The notes under the pieces are model-generated. The model had not been told where the DNA came from. It did no database searches and saw only the letters and a list, made by a program, of their open reading frames with translations. A program made the translations under genes and the position numbers. Shown piece by piece: positions 5,986 through 61,787 of a stretch of DNA of 64,000 bases; the stretch's first letter is position 1; each line of letters starts with the position of its first letter. This DNA is from Geosiphon pyriformis uo1. Lineage: Eukaryota; Fungi; Glomeromycota. The stretch is taken from NCBI GenBank assembly GCA_016748015.1, contig JAAOMT010000135.1:571960-635959 (forward strand). The letters run 5' to 3'.

Positions 5986-6321
5986 TTTAAGACTGAGTAG
6001 ACTGCAAATATAAAAATACATAATGGCTCATTATCTTGAAGCCCCCTATTTCTTTTCTCTTGTTCCCAAAAAAAAACTCACAACTAAACCGACTCTTAAG
6101 TCTTTACAACTTCATTTTCTTTGTCGTCTTAAGCTATTTAACACAGCGATCGAAGACTTCAAACGAGTCATTATTGTTTTTAATTAGTACTTGTCATAGT
6201 TAAGCAGATATTTCGCCGCGCAAAAGTAGTATTCTTGTTGTACACCTTTCGCCTGTTAATCATAAATCTGAAAATAAACCACATTTCACTGTAAAAGATT
6301 GTTTTAAAATTGTGGGATCAA

Positions 6322-16300: not shown

Positions 16301-19300
16301 GATGCAATGTGAAACATTGTTTGTGGAGTCATGGTTTCCTCAGCTGATAGGACATTTAAGAGAAAATGGTTCAAAAGTTATAACAGAGTTTTTACCAAGG
16401 TGTCTTTTAAATTTCATAAACTAGAGTTGCTGGTATCCAGGTTGGTAAAAGCTTCTTGTTTGGTTTTAAGTAATGATTTTGTTTCATTGTTGGGTACATG
16501 AGACAGACTTGACTCTAGTGGTGCAGCAGAAGTGAAATCTCTTTTTTTTTTAGGTTCTACTTTTGATGCTATTTGTTTTGGGTTGGTTAAAGCAAGAAAG
16601 TTTTACCATTCTTCCAAGTTACTGGAATTCAAGCATGCTGAAGAATTTCTTATCAAGTGGGCCATTACCAGTAAAATAGAAAGTTTTGAATTAAATAAAG
16701 ATCATATCATTAGAAGTGTGTTAGAGCATTCTTTTTGTAAGGTTGTATTGGATCATTTAGTTGTAGGTGATGAGTTGGTTTTGGAGCCTGATTTGGTTAG
16801 GTCTAGAGTGGATGAAATTATGAAAAATTGGACCAGAAAACATGGGATAGTGTCCGATATCTCTGATAATTGAACTTGCCAATATTAGTCTTTGGATTAT
16901 GTTTTCAATGGTGCATTTTCCAGTGTAATGTGTTCAATTAATTCTGATGAATTGTTTGCTGTGGTTTCAGATCTGCTTGATGGAAAAGTGGCTGGGCTTT
17001 CTGGCATCTCTAATAAATTGTGAAAACACTGTGACAACTTAGTCTTGGCTATGCTTTCTGTGCTCTTGAATCTGTGTCTGATTTGTGAATTAGTATTTGG
17101 GTCTTGGAAAAAAGCTTGGGTTTCAATAATTCTTAAGCTATATGAATGGGAAGATGTTCTTACAAATACTTGTTCTATTGTTTTGATCAAAATGGCTTGC
17201 AAAATTCTTTTCAAGATACTTTCAGACAGGATTTTTTTAGCTTGCAGTATTTATGATGTTTTACATGGAAACAATTTCTCTGTGTTAAAAGGTATGACAA
17301 TGCAATCACCTATTTTTGCCATCAGTTCAGTGATAGAGGATGTATTGAAGAAGAACCAAGAACTGTGACTGGTTTTGCAAAACATACATAAGGCCTATGA
17401 CTCTGTTGGTTAGAAATATCTTAGGAGGAGTTTGGTTAGAATCAAAATATGCAACAGGTTTGTTAGATTTTTTGGTAATATTTACAATGGTCGAATTAAC
17501 AAAGTGATGACAAACTTTGGCTTAACTGATGGGTATCATGTTCATAATAATTTGGACCAAAGAAAGGTGTTTTGCCTCTTTTTTGGCACATATTTTATGA
17601 CTTGCTTCTGTGTAAAGTCAAAAGACAGAAGAGTATGTATGGTTACAGATTAAACTCTCATTTTGTTTTCAAGTCTGGCTGGATGGAATCTCAGACTGGA
17701 TTGACATCATTTTTTGCTGCTGGTGCTTTTGTTGATAATACAATTTGAGTTGGTAGTAGTCAGACTGCTACACAACACATCTTCAATGTTGCTAGTGAAT
17801 TCTTTAAGTTTAATAATATTTCCATAAATAATGACAAAACTGTGGTCATCCCCATTAACTGTTGAGTTTCAAACTCTTATCTGACTGTTAGTGGTTTGCC
17901 TATTTCTGTCGCCAAAAAGAAGGAACCTCATCATTATTTGGGTATTTTTTTGTCCTCTGAGGGTCTGTCAAAACTTAGCCTGGCTAAAACATATTCGGAT
18001 GTTCAATTTTTCATCAATCTTGTTCTAAGAAAAATGATTTTAGATAAACAGTTTGCATATTTGGTGTCAGCAGTCTTTTTCTCTATTGTCAATTACAGGA
18101 CCCAATTCAGTTTTGTTCCTATTAGTGTTTGTAATAAATGGGATGCTATGATTCACAGGGGCTTGAAGTTTAGGTCTGGTCTTCCACATGATTTCCTTAT
18201 TGATACAGTCTATCATCTTTCCTTGTATGATTTAAAAACTTTTAAACAAATTCAGGCTGAGAGCAAATTGGCTTCCATTATTTCTTTTGCAAATTTATTG
18301 GGTATTTTGGGTTGGTTATTTTCTTACAGATCTCATGATTTTTAAATTTTTAGCTGGTGTTCTTGCCACCCTCTCCAATTTCTGGCTTGTGTTAGAGTCA
18401 ACTCTTCAAACAATTTTTTGGCTGGTATGGTCTGTATTTTTTCTGGATGTGATTTGTCCTTAAGTGGTTCTCCAGCCAGTGTGTTTCATTATCAGGGTGG
18501 TACTTCTATGTCTCTTGTTCTTGGTGGGCTTAATTATTTTAAGTATGTTTTTTCTCTTTGGCAGTATGGAGTTGCTTTTGTAAATCAGCTGTATGACAAG
18601 CATGATAATGTTCTTGGTTGGCCAACTTTCAAGCAGTGAAAGTAACTGAACTTTCATGGTCCTGTTCCTATCTAGTTTGAGTTTTTTGTTCATTTTCTTG
18701 GTGGTAGGACTTCTCTTTTTGTTTGTTCTCCACTTCTGAATGTCTTTTCTGATGTTTTTTGGTCTCATAATTTTGGTGTTATTGAAGTCAATTTGTTATA
18801 TGTTAATGCTGCTTGTCTTTCTGTGTACATGAATAGGTCTCTGAACAGTCTGAAAACTCCTGATGTGATGGCTGGTGCTGCTGTTTTTTTTGAGGACATT
18901 GATTTGGGTCTGGGTGTTAGAGTCTCTGGTTTGGTCTCTTCTACAATAGCAGAGTTGCAGGCCATTGCTCTGGCTCTCAAGTGTATTTTTTTTTTCTGTT
19001 CTGTTAACTTGTTTTCAGACAGCCAAGCTGCTCTGGATGCATGCAAGTCGGAGCTTGTGTTAGCTTGTCCGAATTTCAGAAATCAGTGTTGGGTTGAGCA
19101 TTACTATATTGTTAATGTCATTTGCCACAAGAATTTGGATGTAAATTGGATTAAAGTTAAAGGTCATTCTGGTGTCTCTGGCAATGAGCATGCTGATGCT
19201 TTAGCTAGGACTGCTGTTTTCTCTGATAGGTGCCTACCTCATATGATCAGCAAACAATTTTTTTAAGCTGATGGTGTAACAGTTTTTGGTAATTCTTAAC

Positions 19301-20238
19301 ATTTTGTTCATAATATTTTCTGATCTATTCACCATATATGTTGGGAGATTGGTTCTGGTTTTCATATTCTGATGGATAGCCTGTATGCTGATATAGATTA
19401 ATCCAGATCTTTGTTGGTGTGGCATCCTGACTCTCACTTGGCTGTTGGTTTTACCAATGCATACACTGCTGGCTTTTGTTTATATTTTATGAAGGCATTA
19501 TATTATTGTCTACCTATTACAGTATGTAAGCAACTTTATAATAAGTGTTACTTTAATGTGGTGTGTTTGTTTTGTGGAGATGTTGAGGTCTTGTACCATG
19601 TTTTTTCTTGCTCTTTTGATGCTGCTGGTCATGCCCAGTTGATAAAAGCTTATGTGTTTACTTGGGAAACATGCTCAGGTTTATTTCGCTCTTTTTCTTG
19701 TGTCTTGCAGTTATTATATATTTGTGTTTTCAATGTTGTTATTGGTACAGCTCTGTATAAAGACTTTGTTTTCAAGGATTGGTATCGTGAATTTGTTTCC
19801 ATTTTTAAAGACCCTAAAGTTGCAGCTCAGAATATTGTTTCTTTTGTGTGCAAATTCTGTCTTGCTTTTGAGGATAATATTTGGCTGGTGCATATCAAAC
19901 ACTGGGCTATTATGGAGAAAGGTGGCTTGATCTCACAGAATGGTTCTGCTTCTGTTCCAGTTTCTGGTCTTCCAGTGGTGCTCTTGGCTGGTATGATTAG
20001 GTTATTGGATATTGCTGATGTGTTTGGTATTAGTTTTGAATTTTGTAAGTTTTGTTAGTTTTTTTCAGGTATTGAGGACATAGTCTCTGTTCATATAAGT
20101 GTCTAGTGTTGTTTTAATTAGCCTGAGTGGCTGGTCATGTGTAGCAAATGCATGATTTACACCTAGTTTAGATTATTAATGTAATATATAATACTAGGCT
20201 GCATTTGGACTTCACTTATTAAATGATAAAAAAAAAAA
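13400..20238 (+). mobile_element. LINE copy 2: near full length, inactivated; ORF1 ~13510-15459, ORF2 ~15456-20106, poly(A) tail 20228-20238
   Basis: APE (ETKLK, GLYAG, DFN), RT (KAYDSVG, AFVDNT), RNase H (ELQAIALAL, SDSQAAL, KVKGHSGVSGNEHADALA) and CLFCGDVE..HVFSC zinc finger, with many stops. The conserved 3' UTR is followed by A11. The 5' boundary is approximate. Confidence 0.9.
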
Positions 20239-20809: not shown

Positions 20810-21764
20810 TATTACCAGTAGAATTTTAGTTATTAATTAGCATGAAATTACCCTTCTAATTTCTAACATTAATTAGTATATATTATTATCATTTTAATTA
20901 TTACTTATTAGTTAAATCAAATTATCAAATATTATTATTTAATTAATAACCTGATTTGTACTATAGAAATTAAAATAATTAAATTACACAATATCTTGAA
21001 CTATTTAATATTCAAAAATTCGCCGAAATTAATAGAAATTAGCTAAAATAATCAATAGTTTGTAGAAATAATTTGTAGTTTGCCGAAATGTATTTTTAGT
21101 TTGCTGAAATTATAGCAAAGGAAAAAATGCAAATTCAAAGACTAGTACTATAACAAGTTGTATAAAAAAAGAGCTTTTCTTTTCAAAAAAATGTATCTTA
21201 TCTTTTATCAGATATCTTAGTTAGAAACAATTATCCCTTACACATCTTTACAAATCAAATAAAATAAATATTCAAAAAATTGAATTCTTAATTATTTATT
21301 TAAAATTTACAAAATCCAACTAACGTTTTAAAATTGATTAACTACTAATTTCAATAATCTATTAGTGATTTCAGGCCTGGATAAGGAACATTTCCCTTGA
21401 TAAAATTCTATTTTTTTTACATTTCCTTTATTTTTTTTTATTTTTTTTATTATAATTATTAGGATAGCCTACATACAAGATTTCTGTAAAAAAGTTGACT
21501 TTTACAGCAAAGTAACTACACATTTTTAGTGAACTTCCAGATGAGCAATTTTTGAGAAAGAGTTAACATTTACTACAATGTAATTACATAAAATAACTGG
21601 CACAGAATTGATTATTCTACTTATAAGCCCAGCAGTTCAAATTATAAAAAATAATTTAAAGATAAATTCAGTTATTAAAGGTTTACTAGTTTCCAAAAAA
21701 CGTGAATTTACAACAAACAGACATTAACAACATTAAAAAAAAAGACCAAAAACCTCTAGTAACA
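20810..21764 (+). repeat. Solo LTR of gypsy family A, opposite orientation to the full-length element
   Basis: Reverse-complement homology to 25350-26321 over ~950 bp. Ends TATTACCAG...CTAGTAACA. Both flanks continue the same LINE reading frame. Decayed 4-bp TSD CCAG/CTAA. Confidence 0.85.
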
Positions 21765-25349: not shown

Positions 25350-26321
25350 TGTTACTGGAGGTTTTTGGTCTCTTCTTAGCTTTTATATGTTTGTTGTAAT
25401 GCTGTCAATTCATGACTATGGGAAGTGTTTGAACCTTTGATAACTGAATTTTTATCTTCAAATTATCTCCTATAATTTGAACTGCTGGGCTTATAAGTAG
25501 AATGGCCAATTTTATGCCAGTTGCTTTGTGTAGTTACATTGTAGTAAACATCAACTCTTTTTCAGGAATTGCTTGTCTGGAAGCTTACTAAAAATGTGTA
25601 GTTACTTTGCTGTAAAAGTCAACTTTTCTACAGGAATCTCGTCTGTAGGCTACTCTAATGATGATAATATGAAAATAAAAGAAAAATAAAAGAAAAGTAA
25701 AAAAATTGAATTTTGTTGAGGGAAATGTTTTCTATCTAGGCCTGGAGTTACTAACAGTTTTACTGAAATTGGTAGCTAATCAATTTCAAAACGTTAGTTG
25801 GGTTTTGGGAATTTTCCAAGTACAATAATTAAAGAATTTGGTTTTTCGAATTATTTGATATTTATTTCTTTTTGTGTATATAGAAATGGTTCTAAGTAAT
25901 AAATCTAAGGTAAGATACATTTTCTCGAAAAGAAAAGCTCTTCTTTTATACAACTTGTTGTAACACTATTCTATGAACTTGAGCTTTGCTATTTTCTATA
26001 ATTTCACTGAACTAAAGTTATATTTTGGCAAACTACAAGTTATTTCTGCAAACTATTAGATATTTCGGTGAACTATCAATTATTTTGGCAAATTCCTACA
26101 AATTTCAGTAAACTTTTTAAATGTTACATAGTTCGGAGTATTGTATGATTGATCATTGCAATTAAGTTACATTTGTGTTATGTACAAATTGGATTATTAA
26201 TTAAATGATAATTTCGGATATTTTGCTAATGTAATAAGTGATAATTTGAAATGCTAATTAATAATAAGAATTATAAAAGTAATTTTATGTTAAGCAATAT
26301 CTTTAATTTCATCTAGTAATA
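25350..26321 (-). repeat. 3' LTR, family A
   Basis: Direct repeat of 34221-35191. Plus-strand ends TGTTAC...TAGTAATA (decayed TGGTAACA). Confidence 0.95.
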
Positions 26322-26967
26322 TAACCTTCTCCTCAAGACTGAGTTCCATTAAAGTCCAAGTACTGTCTGTAATTTCCAGATAGTAATCCAAGATTATTGA
26401 AGAAATTTGATCTGAAAATTTTTGAAATTCCAGTTCTGTGAGCTTTCTAATGTATTGAATCTTCAAGGGTTGTAAAATTGGGTTTTGTAGGATGTTTTTA
26501 CAGGTGTGAAATAGGTCATAAAGTCTAAGAGCAGCTCTTAGTTTATAATGACTGTTTGTAGATCTAGCTGTTGTCTTAAATTCGTTGTGAAATTGTTTCT
26601 GAATAGCTTCTTTTGTGAGGTTTGCTGCTGTAAGCTCTCATTTTTGTTCGTGAAGTGTTTTTCCAATGTAGAAGTATCTATATATTGGAGTATAGTTGTA
26701 GTTTTCTTCGTTAAGACATAGTTAAAGCTTTTGTTGAATAGTAGTATTTGGTGGAATACTAATAGGAGTGAGCATTAAGTTTTCTCTTAAAACAAGCTTT
26801 AAAAGTTCTAACAGGTGAATTCCAGAATAACTTCTTGTGTTCTTCTTATATGGATGATATTTTCATGAATTTGGGGCTAAATTTGTAACTGCTTCTGTTT
26901 GGGTATAATTAATGTGGTTTTCAGTAATAGTAATAGATAATTTGAGTATTGTTTTTAAAACTAACAT
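26290..26967 (-). pseudogene. ORF3 of gypsy family A: ~225 aa protein of unknown function, not env-like; three premature stops
   Basis: Single frame, 678 nt, ATG to TAA with no frameshift: MLVLKTILK...PIYRYFYIGKTLHEQK*EL...KLRAALRLYDLFHTCKNIL...IQYIRKLTELEFQKF...EEKVILLDEIKDIA*. All three stops are one C-to-T away from CGA or CAA. Confidence 0.75.
26322..26334 (-). other. Polypurine tract (GAGGAGAAGG; GAGGAGGAGG in the sister copy)
   Basis: Purine run on the minus strand just upstream of the 3' LTR. Also present at 61638-61650. Confidence 0.8.
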
Positions 26968-27139
26968 TAGTTTTTGGAATAATTGTTAAATGTTTTGAGG
27001 AATAGTTATTATAAGAGATTTGAAAATAAAAGAAAATTATTTTTGGTGTATGGGTTTTTATTATTTTTTGCTTTGTTTTTGTGAGATTGTTTCTAAATTA
27101 TAAGGAGATAACTATAATAATAATAAATTTAAGTTAAAT

Positions 27140-28519
27140 GTTCAAGTTGGGAGGTTGTTCAATAACAACTATTGGTTCTAAATTTCGAGAAATATCTTCA
27201 GAATTGATTAAAGGAGAATGTGTACCAATTTGTGAAATTAATAGTTCAGAATTGTTTCTAGAATTATAGTGTTTCAAACGATCTCCATGTGCAACTTTTG
27301 CTAGGATTTTGTTATCAAGTCTTAGCTTGTATGACTCATTGTCTAGAACTTCATAGATAAAGAATGGTTTATCTCATTTATTTTCAAATTTCCCACTCCA
27401 TTGTTTTTCAGCTTTAGTTCTGTGTAAGAGAACTTTGTTCCCAATTTTAAATTCATTGGTGACTGGTGGCAATTTTTTGTCATGCCGTTCTTTTTGTTAA
27501 GCTTGGGAGTGTTCAATATAGGTGACTGCTATTCGTCGTTTTCCTTCCAGCATGCTAAGCAGAGTGTAGGCTTTTTGTTGAAGTGTTTCCTGAAAATTGT
27601 TTTTATCAATTGGTTGTGCTGGGTATGTTTCTACTGTGAAACTAATTGGTAATGTTGCTGTCCTTCTGTAAGTTAAATCAAATAGTGTGTGTTTTGTGGT
27701 ATCTTGTTTTAGTGTCCTATATGCTAGTAACATTGATGAAATAAAGATATTCCATTCTTGCTCAAAATCAATTGAGACTTTGGCTAATGATTCACACAGT
27801 GTCCTATTAAAACGTTCCACAAGCCCATTTGTTTGTGGATGGTAGAGCAAAGATAATGGTCTCTTGACATTAAATCATTCACAAATTTTCTGGATTAAAT
27901 TGTTCACAAAATGTGTTTCTTGATCAGATAAAAGTTCTATTGGGCATCCATATCTACAAATGATGTCTTCATAGATGAAGTTTGCTACTGATTTCGCATC
28001 TGCTCATTGAATGACTCTGGCTTTGAGCCATTTGGTGAGATAGTCTACAGCTACTGCAATATAACGGTTTCCTTGGTTTGTGATAGGTAGTGGTCCAACT
28101 AAATTGATACCAACTCAGTCAAAAGGCTGTCCAACTTTGATTGGATTTAAAGATTCTATAGGGCGTGTTCCTTCTCTTTTTTGACAACTATTACAAAAGT
28201 CAACATATTGATGTATGTCTCTTCTTATTTGGGGCCAAAAGTAGTGTTCTAATGTTCTTTGGGTGGTACTATCTTTTCCTAAATATGCTGATGAAGGGTC
28301 CAAGTGCATGTTGTATAAGATAGTTTCCTTTTCATGTTCTTGTATTAATCGGAGTAGTTTGTCTGAATTTCTGGAGTTTTGATAATAAATGATGTTGTTG
28401 TGTAGGAAGTATTGTTTGGTTTGTTGTTGTAACTGATGTTTTTCATCTGGGGACCAATCTGTTGGGATTGTTAATGTCTCCAAATATTGTTTAAGATTGT
28501 TGTAGTTTTTGGGGTTCAT
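27140..28519 (-). pseudogene. Integrase (HHCC, DDE core, GPY/F region); no chromodomain seen
   Basis: MH..PSSAYLG..YFWPQ..YVDFCNSCQKR; PFD*VGINLVGPLP; DYLTKW; YHPQTNGLVERFNRTL; WSGKFENK*DKPFFIYEVL..HGDRLK. Confidence 0.9.
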
Positions 28520-28568: not shown

Positions 28569-29980
28569 CTAATCTTGCCTCATTCTTGAAAGACAATAAA
28601 TGTTGATGTGAAGTTTTCCTGATTTATGGTGTACAATATATCAGTAGTTGGCTAAAAATCCTGTCCATTGGGTTTGTTTGGCGTTCAGTTGAGTGTTTTT
28701 GTTCTGAAGCCATTTGAGTCCAATATTATTAGTGATAATATCGAATTTCTTGAGATAAAAGTTGAAATGATGTAGGGCCCAAATTACAGCTGCTGTTTCC
28801 AATTCAATGGCAGGGTAATTCTTTTTGGCTGGTTTTAATGTTCTGCTGACATAAGCAATTACTCACTCATTTCCTTGGTCATCTAATTGTGACAAAATGG
28901 CACCAAAAACAGTATAAGAAGCATCGGTGGCTAGTCGAAACCAGTTACTGAAGTCTGGGTAGGCAAGAATTGGAGCTGTTGTCAGCTTTTCTTTGAGAAT
29001 TTCAAAAGCTTTTTGGTGTTCAGTAGTCCATTTGTATTTAACGTTTTTGGTGGTGAGCTGGTTAAGGGGTTTTGCAATTTCCAAAAACCTTTTGATAAAC
29101 TTTTGATAGTAGGATGCTAATTCGATGAATCTTTTTAGTTCTGTGGTATTTCGAAAAGTTTTGAAATTTTTCCAGAGTCAGGTTTAATTCTATCTTTGCT
29201 AACAATGTGACCAAAAAAAGCCAAACTTGTTTTTCCAAAGTAGCATTTTTTGATATTCAGTTTCAATTCTGCTTTCTGTAATCATTGAAAAACTTCTCAC
29301 AGGTGTTTTAAGTGTAGTTCAAAAGATGGTGAATAAACATCAGTATCATTGAGATAGACAACTACTGATTTCCAAAGGAGACTTTTGTAAACAACATCCA
29401 TGAGTCTTTGGAATGTTGCTGGTGTATTGCATAATCCGAAAGGCATTACGTTGAACTTGTAGTTTCCTTCTTGAGTGGTGAATGCTGTTTTGGGGCGATC
29501 TTTGGGATCCATGACAACTTGCCAATATCCACTCTCTAAATCTAATGTCGAGAAGTATTTGGACTTTCCAAGGGCATCTAACATGTTATTGATTCGGGGA
29601 AGAGAGTAGGCATCTCCAATGGTGACACTGTTGAGTTGTCGATAATCAACACAAAATCATATTTTTCCATTTTTCTTTTTAACTAAGACCACAGATGAAG
29701 CCCATGGACTCATTAATAGTTAAATAAGCCCATTGTTAAGCATCCATTGCACTTTTTCTCAGATAAATTGGTGACTTTCTGGAGCAACTTGGTAGGCTTG
29801 TTGTTGCCTTGGTTTGGCATCTCCTATGTAGATTTGGTGTTGAACCAAATTGGTTCTTCTTAAGTCATTGTTGTTTTTGGCAAAAATATTGGCAAACTCT
29901 GCAATTAGTTTTTTGAGCTGGTTCTGTTGTTGTGGTTCAAGTTGTCTCATGTTGATTCGAGATAGTTTTTCCATGACAAC
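28569..29980 (-). pseudogene. Reverse transcriptase and RNase H of gypsy family A
   Basis: SPWASSVVLV, CVDYRQLN, FSTLDLESGYWQ, KTAFTT, MPFGLCNTPATFQRLM, YLND (decayed YLDD), LATDASY..GAILSQ. Confidence 0.92.
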
Positions 29981-30382
29981 ATGGTAGTTTTTAGAGCTGG
30001 AGTTTGGGATTTTTGGTAGTGAATGTCCAATAATTTCAGAGAAATTGGGGACTGTTTGGGGTAATTCTTGTTAAAAGATATTACTGTGAATAATTCCAAT
30101 TTCTAAGTTATTTAATAAAACTATGGGGAAATTGTTGGAATTGTAAAAAGTAACTCGGATTTTCTTTGTTTCTTCTAGAATATAAATGTTTGGAATCAAG
30201 ATATTATGTTCCAAGCAGATTTGTTTGTTGGACTCAAAAATTTGTTATGTGGTTGTTGGCTTTTCACAAGTGTATATTTCAGGGTGTTCTCCAAAGGGTG
30301 AAATGATAATTGGTTGTAGAAGTTGTAAAATCTGGTAAAATTCTTTCTGTTTGTTGATGGCTATGTTTATTGGAACTGTAAA

Positions 30383-30830
30383 TCATCCAGTTGAACCAAA
30401 ACCTTGGGTTCCTCTTTTACTTTTTCCCAATAGTTCTTTTTGATTGACTAATTGTAAACTTGAAATGTTGATTAAGGGTAAATAAATGACTTGGGCAATT
30501 TTCTCGGCATGTTCAATCTTAAACAGCTTGTCAGTTTTATTTTGGAGTATTACTGTTATGTCACCAGTATATCTAGCATCAATTATTCCTTCTCTGACAT
30601 TGATTTCTTTGCTTGCCAGAGAGGACCAGGAGCCAATTTGAACCATTGCTTCTGGTGGGATTTCGAGAGCAATTTTGAGGTTGATTTTTGTGAGAGATTT
30701 GGGTTTGAGAATGAGAGTATCCTTGTCTGGATATCTTAGGTTATATCCAGCATCAATTTCGTGTGCTTTTTCAGGTTTTATTCCTTGTCTATTATTGTTG
30801 AAGTATTTGAGTTGTAAGACAGGCTGATTT
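30383..30830 (-). pseudogene. dut: dUTPase domain inside the gypsy polyprotein
   Basis: Trimeric dUTPase motifs: DAGY(D/N)L, RSSLA (WSSLA here), GIIDARYTGDI, KIAQ, RGTQGFGSTG. Confidence 0.92.
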
Positions 30831-30899
30831 TTGATAAGATAGATGGGTGTTGTTTCAATTTCTTCTGTTGCTTCCAGTTCTCCAGATTCAATTTCGTTC

Positions 30900-33800
30900 T
30901 TATCACTTTCCCTGGGCAAGGGAATGCTAAGAGTGTAGCATTTAGGACACCACTGTTCATCACAAGACATAATGCATTCTTCACATAGCCTAATGTTTAT
31001 TTGCTCTAATTGTTGAATTTGAGCTTCTTGGGTTGGGTAGGTGTGACTTGCAATTTGGTGGTAGACTTCTACTTCATCTTTGTAATTGAATCCAGCTAAT
31101 TCTATAGTGTATTCAATGTATTCTGCTTCCTTCATTTGATGGACATCTTCTTTGGTAGTTCCATTAATTAATGCTATTGCTAGGTCAAAAATTATCTTAG
31201 CATCATGGGAGTAGTGATAAAGTTTGTTGAGAGCACTGTTGTATGCCGCATTAAAGGGTGTTCCTCTTTTTACTTTTTCTGAAATTGATAAAGCATATTG
31301 GCAGGTCTGATCGCAGACTCCTCCTTTCATTGTTACATCAATCCAATTGCATTTTTCTGGTAGCATATCTCTACAAGTCAAACAAAGAGTATTGTCTTAT
31401 TTTCTGCTTCTTTTTATTAGATGGCCCCATTGTTTTCTGTGGCAAGCCTTGCAGTAATAACAAGTATGATTTTCATATTCTTCTTCAGGTGAAATGCAGG
31501 CTCCCATTGATGAGAGTTTCTTGTGGCAATCTTTGCATTTGAGTAGAATGTAAGGGTGTTGGTTTCGTGGTTCTGGTTTTAAATAGAGAACATTCCATCT
31601 GGTTGTCACTGGTTCTTTTGTTTCAAGAGAATCATTTGTTGAAAAGTACTATTGTTCAGTTTCATCAGCCCAATTGGAGGTTGATCCAAGTGCCATAAAT
31701 GTTTTAATGATGGGTTTTTTTTCTTTTGGTTCAAATTCAAAAGCCAGGGCTTTTTCAGAGTATTTGTTGAATGTACCACAAGTAGTGGGTACTTGGGCAT
31801 GTTGTTCTTAATAGGAGAGTTGTAATTCTTGGGTTTCCCAGTTTAATTTTGCATTGGCTTTTTGAAGCCAATCATTTCTGACAAGGACTTGATACTGGGG
31901 CGCGTCTATTACAAGAACTTTAACTAAAATGGTGATTCCATCAAGAGTAAATAGAAAATTGTCAATTTCTCCTATGGGTGTTTTTTTCATGCCATCAGCA
32001 GTAACAATTACTGTCTGAGCTGGTTGGTCAATATTTTTCTTTAACTGTTGCATCAATTGGTAGGTGATGATGCTTCCGCGGATCTACTGTCTAGAATCAA
32101 GCGAATTGCCATTCCTTTGACTTCTGCTTCAGTGTACATAACAGTAATTGCTTTTTGTTCATTGGTGGCTGCATTGCTAAACAGGAATGGTGAATCATTT
32201 GCTTTGAACTCAAAAGGAAATATATCTGAAAGATTGGCATTTTCAGCAATTCTGGCTGGTGGAATTGTGGTAGAAGTATAAGAAAGGCTTTGTTGTTGTG
32301 CTGCAGCTCTATTTTCCGAGAGTGCAGGATGGTAAAAATTCTGTTCTTCAGGTATTGTAAGATAGCTAAGTTGAGTATAATAATGGGAGAGTCTTGGCTG
32401 AACTGGATTTCGGAGAACTAATTGGTTATTTGGGTTGATTCTGTTGTTGTTTGTTATGAATTGGTTTTGTGATGCAAATTGGTTTTGTTGAACCAATCTT
32501 TGAGCAGGTACTTGGTAATATTGAATGAGTTGTCGATACTGTTGTTGCATTGGTTGTAGAGCAGGTTGATAGTAGTTGGTTTGATATTGTGGTCTTGGTA
32601 GATAGTAAGCTGGTAGTAGTGATAATTGGTAATAAGATTGTTGTAACAAAGGGTAACGTTAATTACTCTGTTTTGTTGGTCTCATTGTAGCTTTTTGCAA
32701 TCTCTTTTCCAGTGGCCAGAGATTCCACAGTAATGGCAATTCTGAGGCTGGTTATTAGAGAATGATATGAAGCTGTTTTGATTTCATCTTTGGGGTGGTT
32801 GATATCTTTGGGATTGCTGTTGTTGTTGGTTGGTGAAATAGTTTTTGACTTTTTTTGTGAGTTGGTCAATTTTCTCTTCAGCTGCTGAACTGGTTTTTCT
32901 AATGGCTAAGTTCACGAGTTTTGTATGATTGGCTTCTTCCATGGTCATTTCATATCTTTTTGCATGCTGAATGGCAGAGTTTAAATCTTTTGAAGGATGT
33001 GGGTGAACTTTTTTAATCAGTTTATCTTTTAAACCAGCGATAAATTGATCCAAGACTTGAGCATCAGAATAATAATCATTAGTTTTAAGTTGGCGAATTT
33101 GTCTGAAAAGTTTGTTGAATTTCCCAATATATGTCATGACAGATTCGGAGGTTTCTTGTTTGATATTGCGAAAACAATTTCAAAGTGTGATTGAGGTGTT
33201 GTTATCAGTGAATTGTTCTAAGAAGGCAGTTTTGAAAGCTGTCCAGTTATTAAAAGGGGTGGTCAAGTTTTCAAACTATTTACCTGCTGTTCCTTTGAGA
33301 AAGTAGAGAATTGTTCTTAACATTCTGGCAGCATTCCATCCATTTGCATCTCCAGCTTTAGTAACTTGGTCAAGCCATTTTTGGGGACTGGTCTCAATGT
33401 CTTCTCTATTAAATTCAGAGATTTTTGCAATGTATGCTGTCATTTCATCTTCTTTGTTTTCACTGTCTATTGATTTTTTTTCAGATATTTCAGAGTTGTT
33501 TTCTTCATTTGCTGCTGTCTCAGAGTGTTCACTTTGATTTTCAGCTAGAAAGTCAAGGAGATTGGAACTAATTTGAAGGGGTTTTTGTTGTCTGGTAGGA
33601 CTTCTGGGTGATGTAAAATCTTCTAGTCTTGCAAATCGATTTAAGAGTGAATTAAGTGTTTGTGCTTGTGCAAGTGAAGCTAGAAAAGATGTGATAGTAA
33701 GTAGAAGTTTTGAACTGGTTCCTTGTTTAGGTGTTTGTAAGTGTTTGGCAGTTGTTTTTGGTAGTATTGGAGTATTTGGAGTGGTTTTTGAGTATTGCTT

Positions 33801-34200: not shown

Positions 34201-34218
34201 TTCCATAGGAGAGCACCA
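34201..34218 (-). other. 18-nt primer-binding site TGGTGCTCTCCTATGGAA
   Basis: Lies 2 nt inside the 5' LTR and is complementary to a tRNA 3' end ...GGAGAGC-A-CCA. tRNA identity not determined. Confidence 0.85.
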
Positions 34219-34220
34219 AA

Positions 34221-35191
34221 TGTTACTGGAGGTTTTTGGTCTCTTCTTAGCTTTTGTATGTTTGTTGTAATGCTGTCAATTCATGACTATGGGAAGTGTT
34301 TGAACCTCTGATAACTGAATTTTTATCTTCAAATTATCTCCTATAATTTGAACTGCTGGACTTATAAGTGAAATGGCCAATTCTGTGCCAGTTACTTGTA
34401 TAGTTACATTGTAGTAAATGTCAACTTTTTCTCATAAATTGCTTGTCTGGAAGCTCACTAAAAATGTGTAGTTACTTTGCTGTAAAAGTCAACTCTTCTA
34501 CAGGAATCTTGTCTGTAGGCTACCTTAATAATAATAATAAAAAAATGAAAGAAAAGTAAAAGAAAAGTAAAGAAATTGAATTCTGTTGAGTGAAATGTTT
34601 TCTATCCAGGCCTAGAGTCACTAACAGTTTTACTGAAATTGGTTGCTAATCAATTTCAAAACATTAGTTGGGTTTTGGGGATTTTCCAAGTGCAATAATT
34701 AAAGAATTTGGTTTTTCGAATTATTTGATATTTATTTCTTTTTGTGTATATAGAAATGGTTCTAAGTAATAAATCTAAGGTAAGATATATTTTCTCGAAG
34801 AGAGAAGCTCTTTTTTTATACAATTTGTTGTAACACTATTCTATGAACTTGAGCTTTGCTATTTTTTATAATTTCACTGAACTAAAGTTATATTTCGGCA
34901 AACTACAAATTATTTCTGCAAACTATTAGATATTTTGGTGAACTATCAATTATTTTGGCGAATTCCTACAAATTACAGCAAACTTTTTGAATATTACATA
35001 GTTCAGGGTATTGCATGATTGATCATTGCAATTAAGTTACATTTGTGTTATGTACAAATTGGGTTATTAATTAAATGATAATTTCGGATATTTTGCTAAT
35101 GTAATAAGTGATAATTTGAAATGCTAATTAATGATAAAAATTATAAAGATAATTTTATACTAAGCAATATCTCTAATTTTGTCTGGTAACA
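34221..35191 (-). repeat. 5' LTR, family A
   Basis: TGTTAC...GGTAACA ends, adjacent PBS, direct repeat of 25350-26321. Confidence 0.95.
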
Positions 35192-35221
35192 ACGTAATAA
35201 AAAATAAATAAATAAATAAAT

Positions 35222-37400
35222 AAAACTGTTTTTTAAGTATGTTTAATCTATTAAATTATATGTTTTGTATATATTTAGCAAAATCAATTAAAATTTACAA
35301 TTTTTTTCTAAAATATCTTTTATTATTAAGCCAACAGCAAAAATCAAAGATTACATATTTATTTTTTTAAAATCAAGAAATTGTTCTCATAAAAAATATT
35401 TTCTTATTGCAGACCAAAAATATTTTGTTTGCTAAAATCTTAAAAAAAAATTTTTAAATAGTTTTAATTAACACAATAGACTTTGTGTTTGTTAAAATTT
35501 TATTCCAATTATATGGTTTAAGAATTATTAACATCTAAGCTTCCTTTCAAAACTAAAAAACAGATTTATTTACCAAATACTTATTTAATAGATTTAACAA
35601 AAAACCTAGAATCAAAGAATTATAGTGTTTCCAAAATTTATTAAATATTTTAAACAAGTCAAAAATCTTTCTATTTGACAACTTTATTATAATACTTAGT
35701 ATTTTATTATAGCCAATTTTATTTATGACACTAAAAAAGACATTGTCAAATATATAAAATAAAAACAAATATTGCTAATGCCAAATATTTAAAACATCTT
35801 TATTATTTCATGTTTTTTTGTTTATTTTTTTATAATTAAATTTATTTAAAACTTAATTTTTTTAGACTTTAATATTAAATTTTTACTATTAATTAAATAA
35901 TTTAAATCCACTTTATAAAATGAGTGCTCTAAAACACTTCTAATAATGTGATCTTTATTAATTTTAAAATTCTTTATTTTTTTATTAATTGTTATATAAA
36001 TTTTTACAATTTAAGTACATTAATATTCAGCAAGCTTAAGTGTACAATATATTTTTTTAACTTTAGCCAATTCAGTTTTAATTGTATTAAAATTGATATT
36101 TAATACCAAAAAATTTTAAATACAATATATACATATGTTATTAAACAGCAACCAATAAACAATTAAGTTATTCAACTTATAACTAAAGCCCAAATGTAAA
36201 GTTTAAACAATTTTAGATACTAAAATTATTAATTTATAAGACTAAGATAAATTTTTAGTATAAATACTATTAAAATTTTTGTTTTAAGTTAAAAAAATAA
36301 TCTTATTGGCTAAGAAACTAACAATTTTTCTAATATTATCTTATATAAAATTTAAATTAAAATGTTTTTTTAAGAGCTTAAAATTTTTATCAAATACAGC
36401 AATATTTATTAATATAAATTTCTTAAACTGGATTTATTTGGCCATATTAGTATCTTTAAAGTTATATTTTTATTAGTTTTTGTTAGCTTGTTTGTGAATA
36501 TTATTTAAATATTTATTTAAAATACTACTTAAACCAACTAAAATAAAAAAAGCATGATAATTTGTGTTAAAAAAATTATTTACATATAAAACTCTTTTAT
36601 TAGTAAAAGCATTAGCTAGATTGAGTAACATAAAAATATAATTAATTGTTTTTTTAACTTTTTATAGGTTTTTTTAAGTAAAAATTTTAATAAATAAGCT
36701 TTTAAACAAAAAATTAATCAAACCAAAATCTACATACTTCTTGAAATTAATATTGTATTTGATACTATTCTTATTAAAATTACTATTCAAAATAATAAAA
36801 ATACTCTTATTATATATTTTAACTATAAAAAAGTTGATAAAAGATGCCAAGTTTAAACATTTTTTAAAAAATATATTTACATAAAGCCTTAATATTAAAA
36901 CAAACTAATTGTTTTTAAATAGCAAATAAACTATTAAGAATTTGTCTAAAATTTTCATAATCTTTGAAACATATCAAACCAAATAATTATTTATAATAAT
37001 TATAATACCAATATCTATATAATTAATGTTCAAACTGAAAATAAAAACTTTAACTTCATTAAATTTGTTTACAATCCAAGATTAAATACTCAAATAAAGT
37101 TTAGTTTTTGTAACAATTAAAATATTGTTTTTTAATTCTTTATGTCATTTAATAATATTATTGTTTAGCAAAATTATTTATTTTTTTTATATTATATATA
37201 GCAATTTTTTAAATAAGACTGGTTATTAAGATATAAAAAAATAAAATATATTCTAAATCAAAGCCAAATTGTTAAATTTTATTAACAAATTTATAATTGA
37301 ATTAGAAAAACTTTTTAATTGTATTTCTAATTTAATTATTATTATAGGGAAACTTGATAAAGTATTATAATAATGTTTAATGCTCGGAATTTAAGTAAAA
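35222..37400 (-). mobile_element. LINE copy 3, 5' continuation (decayed RT N-terminus, APE, ORF1/ORF2 junction ~37225)
   Basis: Resumes at the decayed QDMRKAYDSVGWEHLKNSL codons that precede the break at 24291. ORF 35553-35768 includes NKFWKHYN. The right boundary is approximate. Confidence 0.7.
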
Positions 37401-40400
37401 AAACTGTAAAGTTTTTTTTAAATACACAAACAATGTGCTAAGAATATTAGTTTTTAAAAGTTTTTGTTATATGTAAATTTACTCATAAATTTTTTAGTTA
37501 TAAAGTACAAAGATGTATTTTGGCAGTTTATAGTATAGATATAAGCTATTTTTTTTAAGTTAGTCAAATATAATTACTAGAATCTGGTGTTGTTTTTTTG
37601 CTTTTTTGGTAAGTTAACAAAATAAAATTAATATTCAAACTTAAAAAGAGCTTTTTTTTATTAGATTATTACAAAATTTAGTCTCAGATAATTAATTTTT
37701 AATGTTGTCATTCCACAAGAGCAAAGAAAAACCAAGAAAAAAATAAAATAAAAATTAGTAATATTAATTATTATAATTAAAAACAATTAATCCAAATCAT
37801 TAAGATTCTAAAACTATTTATATTAATAGCTCTAATTTGAAATAAAGATAAAAAAAATAATTAATTTGATTTTAACAACATAAATTCTGGAATTATATAC
37901 AAGTAAATTGAATAATATTTTATTTAATGATTAATAAAAAATATAGAAAAACTTAAATAAAAAAATTTATCAAGTTTAAAGATAAAATATTTAGAAAAAT
38001 ATTGGTTTTTGTTTTCTTTCTGTTTTTTTCTATTTGCTAAAACTACTTATTTTTATATATATTCTTTAGTTTTACAAAATTGCTTTTAATTATTTGTTAT
38101 TTTTATTATTTTACACTATAACTAGTTATCTTATATTATAATTAATTATTTTGTATTATATTATATTATTGTGTATTATCTTGTATTATTCTAAATTATT
38201 ACATATTATTTTGTATTATTTTGTATTATTAAGTTTTTTTTATATTATCACATATTAATTACGTTTTTTTAATAATTTTGAATTGGTTTTTCTATTCAGA
38301 TAATATTATTTCTTTTTTTTAGAATTAAGTTTCTACAAAATTCTATGTATTTGTAAATATTGTTTTTTCAAATATTGTTTTTTATAGATTTTTAAACTGT
38401 GAATTTGTTATTTGTCTTATGTTATTAATTATAATAATTTTTAATAAATTGTTTAATAGTATAATAGAACAGTATTTAAATACTAAATATAGTTAGTATG
38501 TTGTCTTATAATATAGTATTAAGTTGTTTCTCTTAACAAATTTTTCTATTTGTTTGAGAGCTTTTTTGTTGAATATTTGTTTGTTAATATTTAGATATAG
38601 TGTTTATAAGTCTAGTTTTTGCCAATTTTAAAGAACCAATAGATTAATAAAAAGTCTTTTTTTTAAGCTTTAAAGATTTTTGGTGTTCACTTTTCTATAT
38701 CTAGTTTTATAATTAACTTGTTTAAGATTTCTTTTATTTTTTAAGCATACAAAGCCACATATTTTTTTTTTAATTATTTATAAAGATAAAAATACTTAGT
38801 TTTAGTTGAATTTTTGTTCACTTTTTCTTTGTTTGTATTTTTGTATTGTATTTTTTTTCTATTAATTGTGATTTTTATTGATATTATAAATTGTTAAATT
38901 GTTTTAAATAGTTGTTGTAAAAGTTTTAAAATTTTGTCTAAGAGATTTATGTTGAGAATATTATTAACTTTTTTTTTGTTTTTTTAATATTTATATATTT
39001 ATTTTACATAATTTAAATTGTTATATATAAATTGTGTTTGATAATAATAATTGGTTTTAAATCTTATAATATATTTTTTGGTCCAATTAATAAAATTTGT
39101 GTTCTTAGTTAAAATATAAATAATAACAATTCTTGTATTGTATAATAAATTTTTAGATGATTTTTATGTATAGTTTTCTTTAAAAATTTGTCTTTTAATT
39201 TTAATTTATAAGCTCTATTGTCTAAAACTTTGTGTATATGAAATAATTCATCTTATTTTAGATTAAACTTCTCACTTTACTGTTTTTTAGCTTTAATACA
39301 ATATAACAATACTTGGTTTCCAATTTTGAATTCAACTAATTAGTTTAATAAACAATTATTATGTTTTTTTTTCTGTTATTTTTGAATATTAGTAATATTA
39401 TTAGCTGTTGTTTTATAATTGTTTTCTAATATTTTCATAATCTGGTATGTTTTTTAGTGTAAAATAATTTTAAAATTTCCTTTAATAATTGTTTTTGTCA
39501 GAAAAAAAAGTATTTTTTGTTTAATAAGTAATATAGCTTTTTTTTTATAGACTAATTTGAATAATATAAATTGGATAGTATTTTGATTTAATATTTAATA
39601 TGTAAATAATACTGAGAATATAAATAAATCTTATTTTTGCATATTTTCATAACTTATTTTTGTTAATGTTTTGTACAATATTTAATTAAATCATTATATT
39701 AGTCTATTTGTTTAAAAATAATATAATAATAATAATTATTATTTTATTTCAAATTGTTGGTTCAATTTGGCAAGTATATTATTAACAAAATAAGTTTTTT
39801 GGTCAGATAATAATTTTTTTAGACATTTATATTGGCAAATTAGATTTTGATATACAAATTTGGCTATTGTTTTGGTATTTGCCACTTAAATAAATCTAAC
39901 TTTAAGTTATTTGATAAGATAGTTTACAGTATTACCAGAGGTTTTTGATTTTTTTTTTGAATATTATTGATATTATTTTGTTATTAATTCACAATTATTA
40001 AAAGTAATTAAATCTTTAATAACTGAATTTATTTTTAAATTATTTTTTATAATTTGAATTGCTGAATTTATAAGTAAAATAACCAATTTTGTGCCAATTA
40101 CTATATATAATTACTTTGTAGTAAAAGTTAACTCTTTTTCAAAAATTGCTTATCTAAAAGCTTACTAAAAATATGTAGTTACTTTACTATAAAAGTCAAC
40201 TTTTCTACAGAAATTTCATCTGTAAACTACTTTAATAATTATAATAAAAAATATATATATATATATATAATATAAAAAAAAAAATTTTGTTAAGAAATTG
40301 TTTTCTGTTTAGGTTTAGAGTTATTAACAGATTACTAAAATTGTTAACTAATTAATTTTAAAACTTTAGTAAAGATTTAAAGAATTTTAAGTAAAATAAT

Positions 40401-51299: not shown

Positions 51300-53950
51300 A
51301 TAAAAAGTAAAATTTAACAAAATTAGTATTTATAAAATAATTTTGTTAAACTTGGATCTCATTTGTGTTTTTATTGGTATATTGAATGTTTCTATTATTG
51401 TTTTTATTAATGAAAAAATAATAGTAAAAAGAGGTAGTAATTTTTTTGGTTATTTGCAAAAGACCAGATTATAAAAGAAAAAAGTTTCCAATTTCACTGA
51501 TCTTAGTATTAATAAATATTATAATATAAAGCTTAAAGAACATATTTTCTAGCTTTTTTGAGATTATAATCTAATTTTTTTATTTTTATTTTTTTTTATT
51601 TTATCTAATTAACTTTTTTTATTCTTTATAATTCTTTTTTCTTGTCTGTTTTTTTCTAATTAAAAAGCTATTATATATATACATATTTTGAGTTAATATA
51701 TTATAATATTATTATTTTTGATTTTTGTTAATTTCTATTAAGTAATATTATTCTACTCTTAAGATTAAGCTCTATTAAAATTAATATGCATTTTTTTAAT
51801 ATTAATATCTAACATAAAAGTTTGTATACTTGTTTGAACTATTTATTCTTATAAGTTCTGGAATTTATTGTTAATAAGTTTTTTAATTTTATTAAAAATA
51901 AATATGTTTATTTTGTTTGTTAACAATACTTCTAAACAATATTAAAACAGCATATAGAATTGGTATACTATTCTAAAACAGTGCTTAAAGTTGTCTTTTT
52001 CAGTCAGTTTTTTAAACTTTTAAAGTTTTGTTTTGTTGATTTTATTGCTATTTTTTCTGGTGTAAATTGTTTGAAAGTCTAATTATATGGTTATTATGAA
52101 GTGTATATAACAAAAAAAAGCAAATAAGTTTTTTTCTTCTTTAAGCATTGTACTTCTTAAAAGCTGAAATTTTTTTATAATTTTATTAATCAATATGTCA
52201 ACATTTTTTCATTTCTTATGGTAAGAATTAAAACAAGTTATGTTGACTTGTTTTTTTATATGGCTGAATTTCTTTTTTTATATAATATTTCAGAATTATT
52301 AAAAGTAATTTTTAATAAAAAATTATTTTTTTGTAATAACTAAAATAAAAGTTGAGAAGTATTTATAATATTTTTAGGTATATTTATAATAAAATAAATA
52401 TTAAATAAATATTAAAATAAATTATTTTTATATATAAAAATTATAAAATTTTTTTAATAATTTAATGTTTTTAATTTTTTTAACTATTTTTGGAATTGTT
52501 TTAATTCTTTTTTAAATATTAATAATAATAATCCAAATATAGTTAATTGAATTAATTGTTTTTTAGGTAATGTTTAATGATTACTATTGGTTCTAAGTCT
52601 TATAAAATTTGGTCAGAAGACATAATTAGTATATGTATTCCTAATTTAAATGTTAATAAATCAGATAATTGTTATTAATAATAAATTTTTAATTGGTTAC
52701 TGTGTGCAAATTTTTTCAAAATTTTATTGCCTATTATTTAAGACATTATAAACATAGAAGAGTCTATCTTATTTGTTGTCAAATTTTTTACTTTATTGTT
52801 TTTTTGTTTTTGTTCAATATAATAAAACTTTGTTTTTTATTTTGTAAACAATAGATTGTTTTGAAAATTTGCTATTATGTTAAACTTTTTGTTGTTCTTA
52901 AGAGTATTTGATATTATTGATTATGCATTGGCAATTGTCTTTTGGTTTTTTTAATAGTTTATAAGCCTATTTTTTAATAGTTTTTTGTAAGTTGTTTTTA
53001 TTTATTAGTTCTGTTGGATAAATATTTATTATTAATTCTATAAGTAATATAGTATTTTTTTTGCATCCTAATTTAAATAGTGTAAATTTTGTAATATTGT
53101 GTTTTAGTATTTAATAAGTTAATAAAACTAAAAGAATAAATAAATCCAATTTTTATTCTATTTTATTGCTTATTTTTATCAGTAGTTTGTATAATATTTT
53201 ATTGAAACATTTTACTAATTTATTTGTCTGTAAATAATAAGATAATAAAAAAAATTATTTTATTCCGAAGAATTAACTAATTTTAACAAGCAAATTGTTT
53301 ACAAAATAAGTTTCTTAATTTAAGAGTAGCTTTTTTAGATAATCATGTTTATAGATTAAATCTTTATACACAAAATTAGCAATTGATTTAGTGTTTACAG
53401 TTTTAATAATCTTTGTTTCTGGCCATTTTGTTAAGTAGTCTATAACAACTACAATGTATCAATTCTATCTAGTAATAATAGTTAATAATTCTACTAGATT
53501 AATTTTTATTCTATCAAATAGTCTTTTTATTTTAATTAATTATAACAGTTTAATTATTTTTAATTCTTTCTTTTTTTGACATATATTGCAATTGTGAATG
53601 TATTAAATAATATTAATATATATTTTTGGCCAATAGTACAAACTAGTTATCTATTAAATTGTGGCTTTTTTTGCAAAATATTTTGTATTTGGATCTAAGT
53701 ATATGTTATAAAAAAGAATTTTTTTCTTAGTTTTGGTAATCACTTAAAATAGATTGTGTTAGTAGTATTAATATAATATATTGTTTTCAATTAAGTAATA
53801 TTTAGATTGTTTCTGAATTTTTATTTGTTTTTTTAATAATAATTTTGTTAATAATTAAAGAGTTATAAGATAATATATCAAGTATTGGTGTATTTTAATG
53901 TTTATTTTAATTGAATAATAGATAATTTTTGATAATTATGTATGTTACAA
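51300..53950 (-). mobile_element. Old, AT-decayed gypsy fragment, family D: LTR remnant to ~51748, ORF3 homolog, integrase; cut off by LINE copy 5
   Basis: 53340-53525 reads LFDRIKINLVELL...YIVVVIDYLTKWPETK..ANFVYKDLIYKH. GPY/F relic at ~52690-52775. ORF3-like segment at 51850-51980. Confidence 0.65.
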
Positions 53951-53953
53951 AGG

Positions 53954-60649: not shown

Positions 60650-61637
60650 TGTTACCGGAGGTTTTTGGTTTCTTTTCTGTAATGTTGTTGATACTTATTT
60701 GCTGTGAATTCACATTTTCTGGATGTGGTTGAACCTCCAATAACTGAATTTATCTTCAAATTATCTCCTATAATTTGAACTGCTGGGCTTATAAGTGGAA
60801 TAACCAATTCCTTGCCAGTTACTTTATGTAATTACATTGTAGTAAACGTCAACTCTTTCCCAGGAATTGCTTGTTTGGAAGCTCACTAAAATGTATAGTT
60901 ACTTTGCTGTGAAAGTCAACTCTTCTACAGAAATCTCGTCTGTAAGCTACCTTAATAATTGTAATAAGAAAAATAAAAGAAAACTAAAAGAAATGTAAAA
61001 GAAATAGAATTTTGTCAAGGGAAATGTTTTCTATCCAGGCCTGAAGTCATTAACAGTTTACTGAAATTGGTAGCTAATCAATTTCGAAATGTTAGTTGGG
61101 TTTTTTTGGGGGGTTTTTTCAAGTACAATAATTAAAGAATTTGGTTTTTCAAATTATTTGATATTTTATTTCTTTTTGTGTGTATAGAAACGGTTTTTAA
61201 GAGATAAATCTAAAAAGTAAGATACATTTTCTCAAAGAGAGAAGCTCTTCTTTTATACAACTTGTTGTAATACTATTCTATGAACTTGAACTTTCCTATT
61301 TTCTACAATTTCGCTGAACTAAAGATACATTTTGGCGAACTACAAGTTATTTTGGCAAACTATTAGATATTTCAGTGAACTATCAATTATTTCGGCAAAT
61401 TACTACAAATTTTGGCAAACTTCTGAATGTTACATAGTTCGGGGTATTGCATGATTGATCATTGCAATTAGGTTACATTTGTGTTGTGTACAATTTGGGT
61501 TATTAATTAAATGATAATTTCAGACATTTTTGCTAATATAATAAGTAATCATTTGAAATGATAATATATGCTAATTAATGATAGGAATTATAAGATAATT
61601 TCATGCTAAATAATATCTCTAATTTCGTCTGGTAACA
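60650..61637 (-). repeat. 3' LTR of the deleted family A copy
   Basis: TGTTACCGG...TGGTAACA. Homologous to the other four family A LTRs and retains more CpG. Confidence 0.93.
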
Positions 61638-61787
61638 TAACCTCCTCCTCAAGACTGAGTTCCGTCGAAGTCCAAGTACTGTCTGTTATTTCCAGATAAT
61701 AATCCAAAATTATTGAAGAAATTTGGTCTGAAAATTGTTGAAATTTCAGTTCTGTGTGTTAAGGGCTATATTAACTGGAACTGTGAA

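Follow-up and report, generated by a model that had tools for sequence, protein, structure and literature searches.

A putative non-env accessory gene conserved at the 3' end of dUTPase-bearing Ty3/gypsy retrotransposons of Geosiphon pyriformis

Between the integrase and the 3' LTR of a decayed retrotransposon in the genome of Geosiphon pyriformis lies an additional reading frame, here called ORF3, and the question raised by this locus is whether the frame is a gene and, if so, of what kind. The element lies on the minus strand of the stretch of DNA that was analyzed (64,000 nt, hereafter the window). According to the original prediction, ORF3 encodes a basic, helical accessory protein that is distinct from env and common to a whole lineage of gypsy elements, in a layout resembling that of lentiviral nef.

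The target is a 9.8-kb LTR element with the hallmarks of a decayed Ty3/gypsy (Metaviridae) element: two LTRs, a putative primer-binding site, a polypurine tract (PPT) and a 4-bp target-site duplication, ACGT/ATGT, the two copies of which differ by one transition (Table 1). A Pfam scan gave the domain order gag, dUTPase, RT, integrase, which is the gypsy order, with gag followed by RT, RNase H and then integrase as an ORF of its own. LTR ends of the form TG...CA are expected, and the start of the target's 3' LTR has decayed to TA. The two LTRs differ by 59 transitions and 5 transversions over 969 columns, and CpG is depleted (observed/expected 0.2–0.24), which argues that the element meets silencing of the methylation type. 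CG methylation of transposable elements (TEs) in Rhizophagus is described in the available part of 10.1101/2021.03.30.436303. Two further stretches of the element lie around the dUTPase: about 400 codons with Cys/His-rich motifs between protease and dUTPase (32600-30383, minus), without a Pfam match, and a second protease-like stretch between dUTPase and RT, with a weak match to Spuma_A9PTase.

Table 1 Features of the target element and of ORF3 homologs in the window (all coordinates in window positions).
Feature	Coordinates	Strand	Remarks
5' LTR	34221..35191	-	93% identity to 3' LTR
Primer-binding-site-like sequence	34208..34218	-	Putative PBS; TGG-starting, directly after 5' LTR
gag capsid fragment	32784..33179	-	PF03732, PF19259
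pol segment with terminal dUTPase domain	30383..31396	-	PF00692, E 8e-20
RT and RNase H, decayed	28569..30382	-	RT PF00078; frame stop at 28571-28569
Integrase	27134..28519	-	Separate ORF with own ATG (28519)
A+T-rich spacer	27010..27133	-	124 nt, from integrase stop to ORF3 start
Accessory ORF (ORF3)	26290..27009	-	239 codons in intact relatives; four premature stops, no frameshift
Polypurine tract	26322..26334	-	In frame with ORF3 tail
3' LTR	25350..26321	-	About 970 bp
Decayed ORF3 homolog of family C, old element	38312..38938	-	Frame ends at PPT edge
Decayed ORF3 homolog, second old element	51756..52387	-	Frame ends at PPT edge
Last 47 codons of ORF3 in internally deleted sister copy	61605..61761	-	

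In the window copy, ORF3 was recovered as the predicted single frame without frameshifts, running from 26967 to 26290 on the minus strand (225 codons plus stop) and interrupted by three internal stops, TGA at codon 35, TAA at codon 82 and TGA at codon 110. A frame equally long with at most three stops arose once in 2000 shuffles of the region. The start in intact relatives is situated 14 codons upstream, at 27009, giving a protein of 239 aa; the window copy has lost this ATG and carries a fourth stop in the added 14-codon stretch. The proposal that the internal stops came from CGA- or CAA-type codons was correct for codon 35, which is of the CGA type (C in 117,590 of 131,847 depth units from other copies), and for codon 82, which is Gln in the family-A proteins, and wrong for codon 110, which goes back to TGG or CGG. 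Contigs of run X1 covering ORF3 had sense codons at stops 35 and 110 in most copies.

A protein search in which the stops were written as X returned 194 matches. The best 120 of the 194 were all hypothetical proteins of Geosiphon pyriformis, and 64 of these 120 gene models were full-length and free of stops. ORF3 is a real gene that is open in many copies, and a couple of hundred Geosiphon gene models labeled "hypothetical" represent one transposon gene. The Geosiphon proteins include family A (225/239 aa), with about 77–85% identity to the window copy, and subfamily A' (221/235 aa), with 61–67% identity. ORF3 is under purifying selection. Compared with the family majority, a diverged contig of run X2 differed at 14 sites, 11 of them in the third codon position (P 7e-4) and 10 of them synonymous; the count was made from 20 of 24 places, with the 6 that were private to the window copy removed. 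Identity between the subfamilies was 37/42 in predicted helices (171-212) and 11/28 in the linker that precedes the helical core. The variants segregating within family A were weakly skewed (14/31 synonymous, P 0.053, with two nonsense changes, for 40 of 57 rows), the outcome to be expected if insertion is followed by decay in most copies.

A sister copy in the window had been put forward as keeping the same read-in from ORF3 into the LTR. The same last 47 codons are indeed present there, followed by a PPT and an LTR at 61637-60650. The copy is a derivative of the same family by internal deletion, with the dUTPase joined to the ORF3 tail at a shared ACAGAA, and for this reason it does not count as independent support.

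Support from outside the family came from a profile search over 1.84 billion representatives, which gave 35 representative matches. These included two further Geosiphon families at E 2e-7 to 2e-4, namely B (P0148, P0149) and C (P0150, P0151). Two proteins from metagenomes were also among them, P0145 (E 5e-16) and P0147 (E 3e-12). The B and C proteins and both metagenome proteins share 20–30% identity with family A. No relatives were found in viral contigs, prokaryote genomes or phage records, and a search with P0147 as the query returned P0147 itself only. The DNA context outside this genome comes from one element, the P0147 contig (L001). Here the order is RT-RNase H, an integrase 60% identical to the window integrase, a 316-nt spacer, an intact 230-codon ORF, PPT and LTR. 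The longest ORF among 2000 shuffles had 151 codons, as against the 230 observed. Identity between ORF3 and its L001 counterpart was 0.42/0.57/0.43 at the three codon positions, which fits coding sequence and is partly circular, the alignment being protein-based.

Homologs had also been proposed in the two old elements of the window, and they are present, at 38938-38349 and 52387-51777. Against the family-A profile these frames scored a marginal 4.0 and 6.6 bits, each value being reached by 1 of 200 shuffles, while against the family-C profile they scored 90.6 and 40.6 bits, reached by 0 of 200 shuffles (null maxima 4.8 and 5.5). The homologies hold because family C acts as a bridge; they are borne out through that family and remain marginal against the target's own. 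The regions of the old elements (35000-43000 and 50000-54000) contain 15–17% G+C versus 30–37% in younger copies, consistent with a long-running C-to-T loss. Within family C, several models change frame after about 80 residues (P0150, P0164 and P0165 versus P0151, P0162 and P0163), and a shared frameshift may have split ORF3 in two in one sub-branch.

The frame is common to several divergent families and to elements outside this genome, in good agreement with the prediction of a lineage-wide, non-env accessory ORF. By these comparisons, ORF3 is an accessory gene encoded by the elements themselves and conserved within a Ty3/gypsy lineage that carries a dUTPase. The near-neutral variation segregating in family A would suit a passenger, that is, a captured or spurious frame whose openness reflects no more than a few master copies having amplified recently. 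Against a passenger, families at 20–30% identity share open frames and conserved positions, a third-position bias separates the subfamilies, and the core of the protein is confidently folded in models. We regard this explanation as largely refuted and give it only a very slim chance.

Which protein ORF3 encodes was assessed on nine proteins. As predicted, none contained a transmembrane segment or a furin site: the highest 19-residue hydropathy was 0.68–1.29, a hydropathy scan gave neither a signal peptide nor an anchor, R-x-K/R-R was missing in 9/9 proteins, and each had 1–2 Cys. The ORF3 protein thus appears to be soluble and is not env-like. The term "basic" fits part of the proteins, with the pI ranging from 5.4 to 9.6 over the nine; the metagenome homologs P0145 and P0147 are acidic overall (pI 5.4 and 5.9), and the central part of the proteins has a pI of 7.0 to 9.7. 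The predicted helical nature was upheld by AlphaFold2 models, which confidently place an all-helical core. In the model of the whole protein, an N-terminal helix with a beta-hairpin and a linker, all of low confidence, precede this core. Modeled alone, the core comprises seven helices over about 130 residues (pLDDT 90.7, pTM 0.83). The linker is predicted to be disordered and basic, and the conservation pattern follows the predicted outline, being high in the helices and low in the linker. A homodimer prediction without alignment gave no answer (score 0.00). The linker also holds the motif R/K/H-x2-5-PY in 8/8 proteins of distant families and in 27/64 decayed copies of families A and A'; the motif is short, and the full PY pattern is missing in the remaining 37/64. 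According to the available part of PMC2408616, nuclear-import signals of the PY type have R/K/H-x2-5-PY in common as their C-terminal element.

Nothing exceeded a cut-off when ORF3 was scanned against Pfam, PHROGs and NCBIfam. Two hits, phrog_23683 (function unannotated, E 4e-4) and the unrelated family FtsQ (E 5e-4), were treated as chance-level. Sequence searches of the PDB with ORF3 yielded nothing below E 0.2, and an Atlas search gave no usable match for the C-terminal half and a best value of 0.88 for the whole protein. Foldseek with the ORF3 models reached E 0.11 at best in the PDB (core-only model left out) and E 0.042 and 0.51 among viral structures, where a DUF3102 protein stood at rank 7 (E 1.8). 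VIA-align gave no significant fold match, with best Z scores of 5.1 and 5.8; the DNA-binding domains of ParB, Spo0J and KorB (Z 4.2–4.7, rmsd 2.5–5.4, 57–91 aligned residues) were within background.

The most recurrent weak Pfam match was DUF1016_N (PF17761), the helical N-terminal domain of YhcG-type PD-(D/E)XK proteins, which was hit by 8/46 members with a best E of 0.015. All stayed below the Pfam cut-off (P0012, 12.9 bits versus 32.8 bits required), and the domain appeared at rank 20 in the Atlas list (0.85). In profile-profile comparison with an 8-sequence profile, P was 0.007–0.009 at a probability of 4–5%, and the alignment score exceeded 200/200 column or block shuffles. Three of four sub-profiles aligned in one register (P 0.015–0.036), and the B/C sub-profile gave P 0.29. 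The likeness to ORF3 lies in helices arranged colinearly and in matching aromatic-x-Ile-Gly and Arg-x-Tyr-x-x-Phe positions, which fall in register; the difference is that ORF3 has no nuclease domain attached, and homology is unproven. The lead was picked after scanning about 25,000 families, and matches of this size can be chance, since the unrelated FtsQ reached its E value on the same proteins. We therefore treat a relation to DUF1016_N as a weak lead. No function is shown for the domain in the available part of PMC1189080. In Rhizophagus and Gigaspora, an expanded helical family that is still uncharacterized may show a comparable pattern.

The original prediction also included an overlap of ORF3 with the cis-acting sequences at the 3' end. 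As had been claimed, ORF3 does cross the PPT (26334-26322); its last 32 nt belong to the 3' LTR, which starts at 26321. In lentiviruses, Nef is myristoylated and U3 encodes about the second half of it. ORF3 resembles it as an accessory ORF of about 200–240 aa at the 3' end that overlaps PPT and U3, and differs in having no Met-Gly start (9/9 proteins), an overlap of 32 nt, and other families in which the overlap is absent. The Nef core fold did not appear in the fold-search listings, and absence from a list does not exclude such a fold. Families A and A', P0145 and P0147 read in the same frame through the PPT and end 6–11 codons into U3, whereas family C ends with FAGAQF-stop at the PPT edge, as do both old elements. 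The PPT-reading families group together, set off by a branch supported at 100/98, in a tree of 15 rows in which long branches were flagged.

If the overlap were itself functional, as in lentiviral nef, the PPT would also encode a needed acidic tail (of the ELSLEEEIML type). The persistence of the frame through the PPT in A, A', P0145 and P0147 at about 29% identity, all on one side of that well-supported branch, would be in keeping with this, as would the identical end of the target and L001 at 32 nt into the LTR. Against it, the roles of this DNA in priming and integration fix the sequence, which is enough to explain the peptide; the tail is of low confidence in the model (pLDDT <50), subfamily A' stops after 6 codons in U3, no Met-Gly start is present, and family C and the old elements end at the PPT edge. 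We consider a functional overlap very unlikely, and the nef-like layout did not survive. That ORF3 continues through the PPT and into U3 is probably incidental, with the last gene packed against the cis-elements, and the overlap is best described as a clade-specific short read-in over DNA fixed for other reasons. Among Ty3/gypsy elements, CRM group A already offers an example of coding sequence that continues into the 3' LTR (PMC3059260, available part), and its CR motif likewise extends the last coding region through the PPT; there it is the integrase C-terminus that supplies a functional motif encoded in the LTR, whereas ORF3 is a separate ORF with 6–11 low-confidence residues in U3.

The CRM comparison brings in the integrase, which is itself set apart in these elements. 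In the target, 49 nt separate the RNase H stop from the integrase ATG (28519), and the two frames differ. The split between RNase H and integrase is seen in the window at 28580-28514 (minus), in L001 at 772-801 (24-nt spacer), and in the window at 41450-41200, in the old element at 41 kb, as far as its decay allows reading. In these three divergent elements, an integrase ATG with A at -3 follows a stop and a short spacer. Such a separation is unusual for Ty3/gypsy pol and would imply a subgenomic RNA, re-initiation or readthrough. A narrow literature search (PMC5911963, in the part available) brought up no precedent for it. The 3' half is a row of separate ORFs, which makes ORF3 at least the fourth reading unit.

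ORF3 might, on this ground, be a split-off integration-targeting module, acting as a separate protein that binds integrase and a chromatin mark. Its place, after the SH3 region and against the PPT and LTR, is the one that a chromodomain or CR motif takes in chromoviruses. The integrase tails of the target and L001 have SH3_Tf2-1 as their sole Pfam match, and no chromodomain was found at the integrase C-terminus of either, so that the integrase ends in a Tf2-1-like SH3 region. Moreover, RNase H and integrase are split by a stop and spacer in the target, L001 and the old element at 41 kb, the CR motif that spans the PPT into the 3' LTR in CRM group A is held to guide integration (PMC3059260, available part), and the nuclear-import motif would fit as well. 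Opposed to this are the lack of any likeness to chromodomains or the CR motif in ORF3 and the spacer, which differs in length (124 and 316 nt) and frame; hence no fusion with integrase has been kept, and ORF3 is not in frame with integrase. We judge a targeting module to be unlikely.

Our preferred reading, held tentatively and at somewhat less than an even chance, is that the ORF3 product is soluble, works in the nucleus and uses its helical core to bind DNA or chromatin, thereby aiding transcription or protecting the element from silencing. Translation of ORF3 would begin at its own ATG, either on a subgenomic RNA or through re-initiation, as suggested by the position of ORF3 after a non-coding spacer of variable length; inspection by eye gave no clear splice acceptor near the ORF3 start in the spacers of the target and L001. 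The protein may then enter the nucleus by the Kap104/transportin route through its R/K/H-x2-5-PY motif. Its core, distantly like DUF1016_N, could bind DNA, and this DNA or chromatin binding would help the element's own transcription or its evasion of silencing. The CpG depletion, the transition bias and the CG methylation of Rhizophagus TEs amount to a pressure for an anti-silencing role. The nucleic-acid binding, trans-activation or anti-silencing proposed originally is thus weakly supported. A bolder version, which we think improbable, is that an element with a modular, multi-cistronic 3' half captured a prokaryote-type DUF1016_N/ParB-like domain as a nuclear, sequence-specific anti-silencing or targeting factor. 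This would be the first counter-defence protein encoded by a fungal retrotransposon and a cause of the LTR expansion to about 41% of the Geosiphon genome.

The position of env at the 3' end is held by ORF3, whose linker is predicted to be basic and disordered. ORF3 could accordingly be a particle- or RNA-associated factor for packaging or for inter-nuclear movement in the coenocytic hypha, taking the place of env without being a membrane protein; in insects, small accessory ORFs are described as giving transmission without env (10.1101/2025.03.14.642691, available part). The insect protein in that source is a transmembrane fusogen, whereas ORF3 has no hydrophobic segment (maximum 1.29), and no capsid, matrix or movement protein stands out in the fold lists. 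We rate such a factor as doubtful, with little probability behind it, and return to the soluble nuclear protein as the better account.

Placed among known systems, ORF3 belongs to the class of additional ORFs (aORFs), being conserved at a fixed position in related elements and under purifying selection. The premise that extra 3' ORFs in gypsy elements are usually env-like was too strong, as non-env ones occur in plants, rotifers and insects (see the available parts of PMC5408684 and PMC11728184 for other gypsy lineages). The plant Ty3/gypsy aORFs (Athila/Tat 3', Grande1 ORF23, Retand, Tekay 5'), as far as PMC11728184 is available, are likewise conserved extra ORFs of no known family, often predicted to be nuclear and proposed to act in silencing evasion or targeting. 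ORF3 differs in its fungal host, in a separate integrase, in being on the sense strand and packed against the PPT, and in that no sequence or fold likeness was found. The non-env ORF3s of bdelloid rotifers also lie between pol and the 3' LTR of dUTPase-bearing elements, measure 210–230 aa in some types and form separate transcription units (PMC5408684, available part). Those proteins are transmembrane/coiled-coil, GDSL esterases or DEDDy exonucleases in that source, while the fungal ORF3 has neither a hydrophobic segment nor an enzyme match.

ORF3 is therefore of a known kind, a non-env additional ORF, whereas the protein family, the fungal lineage and the split integrase are new within the literature searched. 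That literature contained no description of ORF3 or its lineage; TE databases, supplements and most subscription papers lay outside its scope, as did Repbase, Dfam, GyDB and the TE library of PMC11952901, which could hold consensus elements. Few descriptions exist of extra genes in fungal LTR retrotransposons, and what non-env additional ORFs do is a general question throughout eukaryotes. ORF3 is small, soluble and predicted to be well folded, with dozens of intact copies and a conservation that extends past a single genome, which makes it directly expressible and assayable. LTR elements make up 41.2% of the Geosiphon genome (PMC11952901, available part). If ORF3 is a helper against methylation silencing or a targeting factor, it bears on how this expansion happened.

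The window also contains other repeats and a gene fragment. Two solo LTRs of a related family, 72–76% identical to the target LTR, lie at 40893-39928 (minus) and 20812-21764 (plus), the former interrupting the integrase of the old element at 38-42 kb. LINE-like elements nested with the gypsy elements occur at 43816-50203 (minus) and at 53926-60649 and 15305-20140 (plus), with an ORF1 carrying RRM and zinc-knuckle domains, an endonuclease, RT and RNase H. A host gene fragment with HAT repeats (Suf/PRP39-like) is at 6295-7104 (plus).

Internal-deletion derivatives in which dUTPase or integrase is joined to parts of ORF3 recur, at 63996-60650 (minus) in the window and in P0120, P0126 and P0146. 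In the window derivative the two parts meet at 6 nt that they share, the kind of junction expected from template switching. Finally, the target and the deleted sister copy both adjoin ACGT/ATGT (35195-35192, 25349-25346, 60649-60646), and these two cases only hint at a palindromic target preference.
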